Below the pieces are notes generated by a model. It saw nothing but the letters and a program-made list of their open reading frames with translations. It searched no databases and was not told the DNA's origin. A stretch of DNA of 64,000 bases. Source: an uncultured Gemmatimonadaceae bacterium (GTDB lineage: Bacteria; Gemmatimonadota; Gemmatimonadetes; Gemmatimonadales; Gemmatimonadaceae). Of the stretch, positions 52,466 through 53,767 are shown piece by piece; positions within the stretch are counted from its first letter, which is position 1; every line of letters starts with the position of its first letter. Location: positions 380,480 to 444,479 of the forward strand of contig CAWAGQ010000011.1 of NCBI GenBank assembly GCA_963781585.1, given 5' to 3'. The position numbers and the translations under genes are program-made.

Positions 52466-52573
52466 CACCGCAGAGAACGCAGGGGTCAAGGAGATCTGAC
52501 CGCGGAGCGCGCAGAGATCACGGAGGGTGCGCGGCGAAAGTTCGACAACGGTTCTCTGCGTCCTTCGCGACCT
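52466..52573. repeat. Nonamer-periodic palindromic repeat (CGCAGAG/CTCTGCG), split by IS110; resumes at 53717-53726
   Basis: caccgcagagaacgcagg, accgcggagcgcgcagagatcacggag vs ctctgcgtccttcgcgacCT|ctgtggtt. Confidence 0.75.
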
Positions 52574-52584
52574 TGTATGTCTTC

Positions 52585-52750
52585 ATTGAAGAGTGTTGGT
52601 TCGGGACGGCGGCAGCTCGATCATCGTGGCCGGGGCGTACAGAGCCCGTCGCAGAGTAGGAGCGCCGCCCCACCGATCGCTCGAAGCCCGAACAGCTACC
52701 TGGGTCGACGAGAACCCGCATCTTGCAAGGCAGGGCGCGCGCGATCCCAA
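52585..52750 (+). ncRNA. Predicted IS110 bridge RNA (boundaries approximate)
   Basis: Two stem-closed internal loops: TCGTGGCC (52624-31) and CGCAGAG (52650-56) match the target; ACAGCTAC (52692-99) and TGCAAG (52724-29) match the donor junction. Confidence 0.75.
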
Positions 52751-52765
52751 CGCGGAGTGCCACAG

Positions 52766-53701
52766 ATGTCCTACGTGGGGATTGATGTCAGTAAGGCGAC
52801 CCTCGACGTCGCCGTGCATGCGGGGGCGACGCAGCAAGTGCCCAATGACCCCGCCGGCTGGGCGCGCCTCATCACGCACCTCCGGACCGTGGAGGCCGCG
52901 CTGGTCGTGCTCGAAGCCACCAGTGTCTACCATCGGGGCGTGACCACGGCGCTCGTGACGGCGGGGATCCCGGTCGCGGTGGTGAACCCGCGCCAGGTGC
53001 GCGAGTTCGCGCGCAGCACGGGGCAGCTCGCCAAGACGGATCGCCTGGATGCCGCCGTGCTCGCCCGCTTCGCCGCCATGGTGCGCCCCACGCCCCGACC
53101 GATTCCAGACGACGCCACGCAGGCGCTGGCGGCGCTCCTGGAGCGCCGCCGCCAGCTCCTCGAGATGCTCGGCGCGGAACAGAACCGGCTCGCCGTGGCG
53201 CGGCCCGAGGTGCGCGCCAGTGTCCGGCAGGTCCTGCGCACGCTGGAGAAGGCGTTGGCGGCGACGGACGCTGACGTCGATCGCTGGATCCGGGAGAGTC
53301 CCGTGTGGCGGGCGGAGGAGGCGCTCTTGCGCAGTGTGCCGGGCGTGGGGCCGCAGACGGCGCGGTTGCTCATCGCCGCCCTCCCCGAGCTGGGGCGCCT
53401 AACGCGTCGCGAGATTGCGGCCTTGGTGGGCGTGGCCCCGCTCGCCTGCGATTCCGGCACGCTGCGCGGGCGCCGCCGCTGTTGGGGCGGACGCCGGCAC
53501 GTGCGGGCCGTGCTGTACATGGCTGCGCTCACGGCCAGTCGCTGCAATCCCGTGCTGCGGCCGTGGTATCGCCAGCTCCGCGCGGCGGGCAAGCCGGTGA
53601 AGGTCGCCCTGACGGCGTGTATGCGTCGGCTCCTCACGACCCTCAATGCCATGGTGAAAACGCAAGCGGCGTGGCGTCCGCCCGTCGCAATTGTTCCTTG
53701 A
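52766..53701 (+). CDS. IS110 recombinase/transposase (DEDD RuvC + Tnp serine domain)
   Basis: GIDVSK, LEAT, VNPRQVR, KTDRLDA, SVPGVG, DSG. Confidence 0.95.
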
Positions 53702-53767
53702 CTTTTAACACAGCTACTCTGTGGTTCAAGAAGCTGGCAAGGAGATCCAACGCACCGCCGACGCCCA

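Follow-up and report, generated by a model that had tools for sequence, protein, structure and literature searches.

The mechanism of bridge-RNA-guided recombination was first described in 2024, and the described systems closest to the locus reported here are IS621 of Escherichia coli (PMC11208160; PMC11208158) and, among IS110-family elements of Pseudomonas putida, ISPpu10 and ISPpu9; what is said of all of them here follows excerpts of the respective publications. A long left and a short right end mark the IS110 group, the reverse arrangement the IS1111 group. In IS621, a DEDD recombinase with an additional catalytic serine (residues D11, E60, D102, D105 and S241 in the structure paper) acts at a CT core, and the RNA is encoded in the long left end. 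It presents a target loop and then a donor loop, the 5' sides of which pair with the bottom strand and the 3' sides with the top strand. The left donor guide (LDG) has 8 nt, and the right donor guide (RDG) is discontiguous, with a G opposite donor T12. Two bases 3' of the right target guide (RTG) and of the RDG, the handshake guides, pair with the non-cognate DNA (positions 6-7) once strands have been exchanged, and must not pair with the cognate DNA. A promoter is split into -35 and -10 elements across the circle junction, and IS621 inserts into short repeated intergenic sequences. Here, we analyzed a stretch of 64,000 nt from an uncultured Gemmatimonadaceae bacterium (assembly GCA_963781585.1, contig CAWAGQ010000011.1, positions 380,480 to 444,479 of the forward strand; termed the window), which carries an IS110-type element that resembles IS621 in all these respects, its split promoter being a candidate.

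Judged from its sequence, this element is very probably a complete and recently active IS110-group insertion sequence with an IS621-type bridge RNA, and we propose that it works like IS621. The IS621-type architecture, which a first-pass annotation of the window had put forward, is supported by the protein domains, the catalytic residues, the CT core, covarying loops, the order and polarity of the guides and the handshake bases. Nearly all features by which the IS110 group and an IS621-type bridge RNA can be recognized at the sequence level appear to be present, the two less clear ones being the junction promoter and the pairing of the second core base.

The element, its copies and the empty site

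The element comprises 1145 bp (52574-53718, read from the window sequence) with a CT core at either end, and is organized as follows.

52572..52573, + strand: left CT core, junction of target and element; point of flank divergence in four copies and overlap at the empty site of genome G001
52574..52765, + strand: left end, 192 nt, proposed bridge RNA gene; the left ends of 28 related types are homologues, and four helices covary
52754..52757, + strand: GGAG ribosome-binding site 8 nt ahead of the ATG, read from the sequence; GGAG is aligned in most relatives
52766..53701, + strand: recombinase gene, 311 amino acids, RuvC-like DEDD and Tnp domains; the single open frame between the ends
53702..53716, + strand: right end, 15 nt past the stop codon, with the left-donor sequence ACAGCTA as its tip
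53717..53718, + strand: right CT core; flank divergence in four copies and empty site of G001

The left junction reads TCGCGAC-CT-TGTATG (CT at 52572-73) and the right junction ACAGCTA-CT-CTGTGG (CT at 53717-18). With 192 nt on the left versus 15 nt past the stop codon on the right, the ends show the long-left, short-right arrangement of the IS110 group. The short CT core is all that is repeated; terminal inverted repeats and any longer duplication are absent and the empty site is scarless, again as in the IS110 group.

The predicted recombinase matches PF01548 (DEDD_Tnp_IS110, 8.5e-27, residues 4-142) and PF02371 (Transposase_20, 2.8e-17, residues 186-268), both beyond the curated cut-offs. 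Among solved structures, it matches best that of the ISCro4 transposase (9t56, E 1.3e-35, aligned over residues 2-299), which was compared by protein alone, followed by IS621 (8wt6, E 9.3e-35). D7, E50, D92, D95 and S230 (S230-G231) align with IS621 D11, E60, D102, D105 and S241 (S241-G242); in the printed alignment they face chain residues D13, E62, D104, D107 and S243-G244, and the mapping assumes two extra N-terminal residues in the 8wt6 chain (chain of 328 residues; Tnp domain ending at residue 326 in the paper). The protein is distant from that of IS621 and shorter, with 311 residues versus a Tnp domain that ends at residue 326.

The host genome (5.7 Mb, 17 contigs, 67% GC) contains three full copies and one internally deleted relic copy, at the following sites.

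c1 (window copy): TCGCGAC-CT...CT-CTGTGG
c2: CTGTGTC-CT...CT-CTGCGG
c3: CTGCGGC-CT...CT-CTGCGG
c4 (relic): CCGTGAC-CT...CT-CTGCGC

The flanks of all four part company precisely at CT. Copies c1, c2 and c3 are 100% identical over all 1147 nt compared, indicating recent movement with a single guide set. In a second genome of the same genus (G001:C17), both window flanks are contiguous with a 2-nt CT overlap and read ...CCCTTCGCGAC-CT-CTGTGGTTCAGG..., that is, an uninterrupted TCGCGAC-CT-CTGTGG with a single CT between the flanks. The insertion in the window is therefore recent, and those positions of its target that form wobble pairs with the guides are present in the element-free relative. The first-pass annotation had described the element as intact and had predicted this very empty target. 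Each string and coordinate that it named was recovered from the window sequence, the target exists exactly as predicted, the three identical copies back the word intact, and the ends do not differ between copies.

These observations bear on the possibility that the element is a fossil, i.e. that it inherited a bridge RNA architecture and has become immobile through a weak junction promoter or drifted guides. The -10 candidate is indeed weak, the genome holds no exact target, and one relic copy and one 44-nt stub exist; three copies are nevertheless identical at three sites, the frame of 311 codons is open with all catalytic residues in place, and the site is empty in the same-genus genome. We consider immobility very improbable.

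The diverged relic (G000 C11:113267-113682, minus strand, loci L004/L005) measures 404 nt, with a CT core on either side. What remains is the left end as far as the donor-loop hairpin, together with the final 265 nt; the right donor guide and about 230 codons are missing. Where the window element has TCGTGGCC as left target guide, the relic has TAGTGTCC, and its right target guide is unchanged, so that both guide variants occur in one genome. The stub (G001:C14:65267-65314; L096, ~1490-1560) consists of 44 nt of a relic-like left end at a site homologous to that of c2 and reads ...GGCGGCAG-CT-CTGCGGTAAG; the deletion fuses the right core CT with a CT inside the left end (positions 43-44). Either an aberrant recombinase event or a plain microhomology deletion could account for this stub. 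A guide-directed half-match event was considered and rejected, as the internal site GCGGCAG-CT fits neither 5' guide by eye. The host genome further contains a 57-nt match with 78% identity to the recombinase gene (G000:C8:181052-181108, L006), which probably belongs to a more distant paralogue of the IS110 family.

The left end as a proposed bridge RNA

In the left end, GGCGGC (52608-13) and GCCGCC (52664-69) close a loop that holds TCGTGGCC and CGCAGAG, and GCCC (52686-89) and GGGC (52733-36) close a second loop that holds ACAGCTAC and TGCAAG (52724-29). The modules and guides, including the left target guide (LTG), are these.

52608..52669, + strand: target-binding loop module; outer helix 52608-13/52664-69 plus 52615-18/52660-63, inner hairpin 52633-36/52644-47
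52624..52631, + strand: LTG, TCGTGGCC, for seven left-target positions and the first core base, in the same register as in relatives
52650..52656, + strand: RTG, CGCAGAG (reverse complement CTCTGCG), exact for c2, c3 and c4, with one G:T for c1
52657..52658, + strand: target-loop handshake, UA, complementary to donor positions 6-7 (TA)
52686..52736, + strand: donor-binding loop module; outer helix 52686-89/52733-36, inner hairpin 52702-05/52714-17
52692..52699, + strand: LDG, ACAGCTAC, matching the last 7 nt of the right end plus core C at 8 of 8 positions
52720..52729, + strand: RDG region, AUCUUGCAAG, in which GCAAG pairs with CT-TGT, with a G:T at donor position 12
52730..52731, + strand: donor-loop handshake, GC; its G is the complement of the C that all four natural sites have at target position 7

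As in the published system, the donor loop follows the target loop; the 5' sides are in the sense of the top strand, and the 3' sides read as the reverse complement of that strand. RTG and RDG each cover both core bases, and the AU of the RDG may pair with donor positions 13-14 with CUU looped out. The LTG matches the four natural sites at 6 positions plus 2 wobble, 5 plus 1, 5 plus 2 and 6 plus 2, respectively, of its 8. Compared with IS621, the LTG comprises 8 instead of 9 positions, the second core base having a G opposite to it, the RTG has 7 nt (core plus 5) instead of 4, and the RDG has one more looped-out nucleotide. Each natural left target was scored separately, since a consensus of three differing sites is meaningless; the consensus left target of the three window-type copies had given its best match (6/8) at left-end position 127, outside the target loop. 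A second heptamer in the terminal loop of the target-loop hairpin, TACAGAG (52638-52644), is complementary, with one wobble, to the core and right target of c1 (CT-CTGTG); it is probably a coincidence, because relatives place the guide at 52650-56.

Relatives were collected by a scan of one genome per species, which yielded 79 loci with 44-61% amino acid identity, all in metagenome-assembled or draft genomes. The nearest one belongs to a Gemmatimonadaceae genome (60-61%), and the others (44-58%) to Binataceae, Dehalococcoidia, delta-proteobacteria and Deinococcus. In multi-copy genomes, flanks diverge at CT/TGTAT on the left and at ACAGYYR/CT on the right, with TTGAC ahead of the latter. Both ends were placed by these motifs in 60 loci, the three full copies of the window genome included; the unplaced relatives lack one end, run into a contig end or do not match the pattern, and L004-L006 were excluded. 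The 60 loci represent 29 left-end types, 12 of which comprise at least two loci. These elements share the CT/TGTAT... and ...ACAGYYR/CT ends, the four helices and the guide layout with the window element, but differ from it in guides and targets. In a Deinococcus member (L066), the left end extends over 261 nt versus 191 nt in sister copies, with an insertion of ~70 nt in the donor-loop region; this type was left out of the comparison of homologous columns, which thus covers 28 types.

When the 22 base pairs of the window element were laid on a MAFFT alignment of the 28 types, 88.8% of the cells were paired, compared with 36-45% when the 3' partners were slid by 1-3 columns. Fourteen of the 22 pairs had changed on both sides, and none of 500 shuffles reached the observed value in any of five measures. 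The outer helix of the target loop was paired in 93.5% of cells, with 8 of its 10 pairs changed on both sides; helices 3 and 4, those of the donor loop, were paired in 95.5% and 99.1%, with 2 and 3 such pairs. The slid control somewhat favours the structure, as this derives from one of the aligned sequences, a concern that is answered by the consensus obtained de novo: RNAalifold returned the same four helices, with the inner hairpin of the target loop displaced by one column, and left most guide positions unpaired except for four short pairs within the loops. The folding and covariance analysis that the first-pass annotation had suggested for the left end hence yields four helices with compensatory changes. 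A scan against Rfam 15 found no family at threshold; the sole match, sX15 on the opposite strand (22 bits versus a cut-off of 55, E 0.61), is taken as chance.

Compensatory changes in helices point to constraint at the RNA level. They bear directly on a different interpretation, according to which the element is a genuine IS110 member whose protein reads a CTCTGYG context in the DNA, as in the view of targeting to repetitive extragenic palindromic (REP) sequences, and the guide-like strings are DNA-level copies, e.g. subterminal binding sites. This we hold to be very improbable: the strings sit in loops closed by helices with compensatory changes, their 5' sides are in top-strand sense and their 3' sides in reverse complement exactly as in IS621, and guide and target co-vary across 28-29 types with quite different targets.

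This covariation was quantified in two ways. In scans of the whole left end, the RTG is exact to its own right target (core plus 5) in 21 of 29 types versus 23 of 742 comparisons (3.1%) with the targets of other types, the LDG 8-mer is exact to its own donor in 17 of 29 types and to the donors of other types in 0 of 190 comparisons, and the LTG 8-mer reaches a mean of 6.59 of 8 with its own target versus 5.72. None of 5,000 permutations of the guide-target pairing attained the observed sums for RTG, LTG and LDG. For the RDG, 355 of 5,000 did; the right donor has two variants and is nearly invariant, so that its covariation is beyond the reach of this test. In homologous columns, own and other means were 5.61 versus 3.61 of 8 (LTG), 6.61 versus 3.68 of 7 (RTG) and 7.54 versus 6.17 of 8 (LDG), values that were not reached in 10,000 permutations, and the RTG was exact to its own right target in 20 of 28 types. 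Two Dehalococcoidia types illustrate the covariation of a single base, one combining GAAGCAG with CT-GCTTC and the other GAATCAG with CT-GATTC; a further pair among the relatives is GGTGCAG with CT-GCACC.

The handshake guides had not been used by the first-pass annotation. Read from the alignment columns, the first base of the handshake complements position 7 of the non-cognate DNA in all 28 of 28 types, for target loop and donor loop alike, and would pair with the cognate DNA in only one of 28 types per loop. In the donor loop this base varies together with its partner (C:G in 23, T:A in 4 and G:C in 1 of the 28). Pairing with non-cognate DNA in every type is a further argument against strings that merely copy a DNA context.

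Targets and site choice in the host genome

The possibility that the four matches are a coincidence in GC-rich sequence draws on the frequency of single matches, which at the stringency of the first-pass annotation occur in 13.8% (LTG-type), 7.0% (RDG-type), 3.7% (RTG-type) and 0.15% (LDG-type) of all 192-nt segments of the genome. Single matches being this common, the strength lies in their combination and in the comparative data. All four together are present in 261 of 11,424,048 segments on both strands, and since 261 equals three copies times 87 segment positions, these are taken, by count and not by location, as the three copies. Given also the covariation of guides, the helices and the handshake bases, coincidence has next to no probability left and can be regarded as refuted.

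For target choice, every CT in the genome was scored against the 12 non-core guide positions, counting Watson-Crick plus wobble pairs. The occupied sites score as follows.

c1: 9+3
c2: 9+1
c3: 9+2
c4: 10+2

Three of the four reach a sum of at least 11, as do only 196 CT sites genome-wide. Each site of the three identical copies departs from the guides at 3 of 12 non-core positions, and almost all of these departures fall within the left-target duplex. Core, RTG and handshake base always pair at occupied sites. For IS621, low mismatch tolerance in a screen and natural targets with mostly 0-2 mismatches to the guides are reported (PMC11208160; PMC11208158, in the parts drawn on here), and three of 12 non-Watson-Crick positions lie at the loose end of that natural range. 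An exact guide-complementary target is absent from the host genome, and two exist when wobble is allowed.

Concerning wobble itself, the first-pass annotation had stated that every mismatch is compatible with G-U or G-T pairing. This is correct for c1, whose four non-identities to the guides are all U:G or G:T compatible, but does not extend to c2 and c3, which have C:A and G:A mismatches to the same guide. What the natural record documents is mismatch tolerance in the left-target duplex, not wobble specifically. The G:T in the right donor is likewise present but not special, given that IS621 has natural G:T pairs as well (G161:dT12 in the right donor and a second one in the target duplex; PMC11208160; PMC11208158, same excerpts) and that 23 of 28 relatives have a TGCAAG or CGCAAG tail of the RDG opposite TGTAT.

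Each of the four insertions is located within or next to a cluster of the heptamers CTCTGYG/CRCAGAG. CTCTGCG occurs 683 times in the genome, below the ~1,300 estimated by hand from base composition, and only local clusters stand out: 3.3% of heptamers have at least two neighbours within 100 nt versus ~0% expected. Of ten clusters of at least three heptamers, five adjoin a copy, with two of those counting heptamers inside the element. Clusters are present at window positions 52430-52571 and in the flanks of the other copies, and some form hairpins, e.g. CTCTGCGGT...ACCGCAGAG. We conclude that they are a REP-like repeat family that serves as a landing site, in a soil bacterium of 67% GC, where IS621 uses the REP elements of E. 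coli. ISPpu10 and ISPpu9 also insert into repeated intergenic palindromic sequences; compared with these, the heptamer clusters of our host are few.

It is here that the reading of a DNA context by the protein finds its support. Four insertions are found in or beside a handful of clusters, sites that match the guides are unoccupied (one equals the best occupied site, and 17 beat the two weakest), and in ISPpu10, according to the excerpts cited above, a structural determinant of the target adds specificity beyond base pairing. A context preference can, however, coexist with RNA guidance, and one like that of ISPpu10 is possible for the bridge-RNA-guided element proposed here. We tentatively consider, as a possibility that we rather doubt, that its target rules are looser than those of IS621, with RTG, core, handshake base and DNA context being decisive and the LTG acting as a relaxed filter.

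A number of results weigh against the interpretation preferred here. The single-sequence minimum free energy (MFE) fold of the left end (-75.2 kcal/mol, z = -0.09) is no better than those of shuffles; at 67% GC such a fold is uninformative, and it forms long-range pairs other than those of the comparative structure. In the MAFFT alignment, the poorly aligned inner hairpin of the target loop is paired in 59.8% of cells. The second core base is paired neither by the LTG (G, 52632) nor by the LDG (C); several relatives carry a U at the LTG slot that faces it. The C:A and G:A mismatches of c2 and c3 belong here as well, as do the unoccupied sites: one scores 10+2, equal to the best occupied site, two score 9+3 like c1, and 17 score 10+1, above c2 and c3, so guide pairing alone does not explain site choice. 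Among the relatives, the ends of single-copy types were placed by motif search alone. The LTG columns of the nearest relative (type L007) match its own left target at 2 of 8 positions, or 5 of 8 after a shift of 1 nt made by eye, and the LTG is similarly out of register in L039, L043 and L063. Finally, for the integrated state, a search of the left end and of the sequence immediately before it gave no sigma-70-like promoter, and the window element has TATGTC, without the conserved final T, at a -10 slot where 16 of 29 types have TAnnnT.

The proposed pathway and its place among known systems

Three further candidate features concern the expression of the left end.

53698..53703, + strand: candidate -35, TTGACT, overlapping the stop codon; 18 of 29 types have TTGAC at the same fixed position
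52576..52581, + strand: candidate -10, TATGTC, weak, 17 nt from TTGACT across the joined ends; 27 of 29 types have TATNNN here
52580..52592, + strand: candidate 5' stem-loop TCTTCA/TGAAGA, read by eye and weak; the MFE fold is without it, and its sequence is unconserved in relatives

Joined ends would thus build a promoter, TTGACT-17 nt-TATGTC, that fits the published junction promoter. One soil-metagenome DNA run (0.32 of sampled words, contigs only) provided no contig that spans the element or joins across it; neither a circle junction nor an empty allele was seen in this run, which is uninformative either way.

We propose that the element departs in circular form, its right end being joined to its left end at the CT core. 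The circle junction would set the -35 sequence of the right end 17 nt from the weak -10 sequence of the left end, and transcription would read the 192-nt left end as bridge RNA, with the left and right target guides in loop 1 and the left and right donor guides in loop 2. The DEDD+Ser recombinase of 311 residues would use this RNA to pair ACAGCTA-CT-TGTAT with genomic YYGYGNC-CT-CTGYG in CTCTGYG heptamer clusters, and strand exchange would occur at CT with the help of the two handshake nucleotides that follow each top-strand guide on its 3' side. We infer by homology with the described systems that the left end is transcribed, that the circle forms, that RNA and protein bind each other and how the chemistry proceeds; that the guides might be reprogrammable, as the first-pass annotation had suggested, is inferred as well.

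With respect to the surroundings, a strong promoter-like sequence, TTGACA-18-TATCAT (11/12; 53768-53797, + strand), is found 50 nt downstream of the element and is followed at 53805-55179 by genes for an ArsR-family regulator (PF01022, 6.7e-17) and an S-adenosylmethionine-dependent methyltransferase (PF13847, 3.3e-34). The element sits just upstream of this putative operon and leaves the operon promoter undisrupted. On its other side lies an alpha/beta hydrolase gene (51406-52326, minus strand); between this gene and the empty site, G001:C17 carries ~1 kb (~193693-194693) that is absent from the left flank in the window.

The known picture of bridge RNAs is unchanged by this element, as the mechanism, the architecture and natural G:T pairs have already been published. 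A text search found no paper that joins bridge RNA and a Gemmatimonad, which shows only that the lineage is undiscussed in the literature searched. What is added is a bridge recombinase that is compact (311 amino acids), apparently active and from a soil lineage of high GC content. It is nearest to elements in genomes of Gemmatimonadaceae, and its guides, its donor, the four natural targets and one empty site have all been mapped in full. The 28-29 related types with mapped guides and targets provide a small and clean set for testing guide rules, among them the handshake rule (28 of 28 types), and the record of natural insertions offers a field measure of mismatch tolerance.

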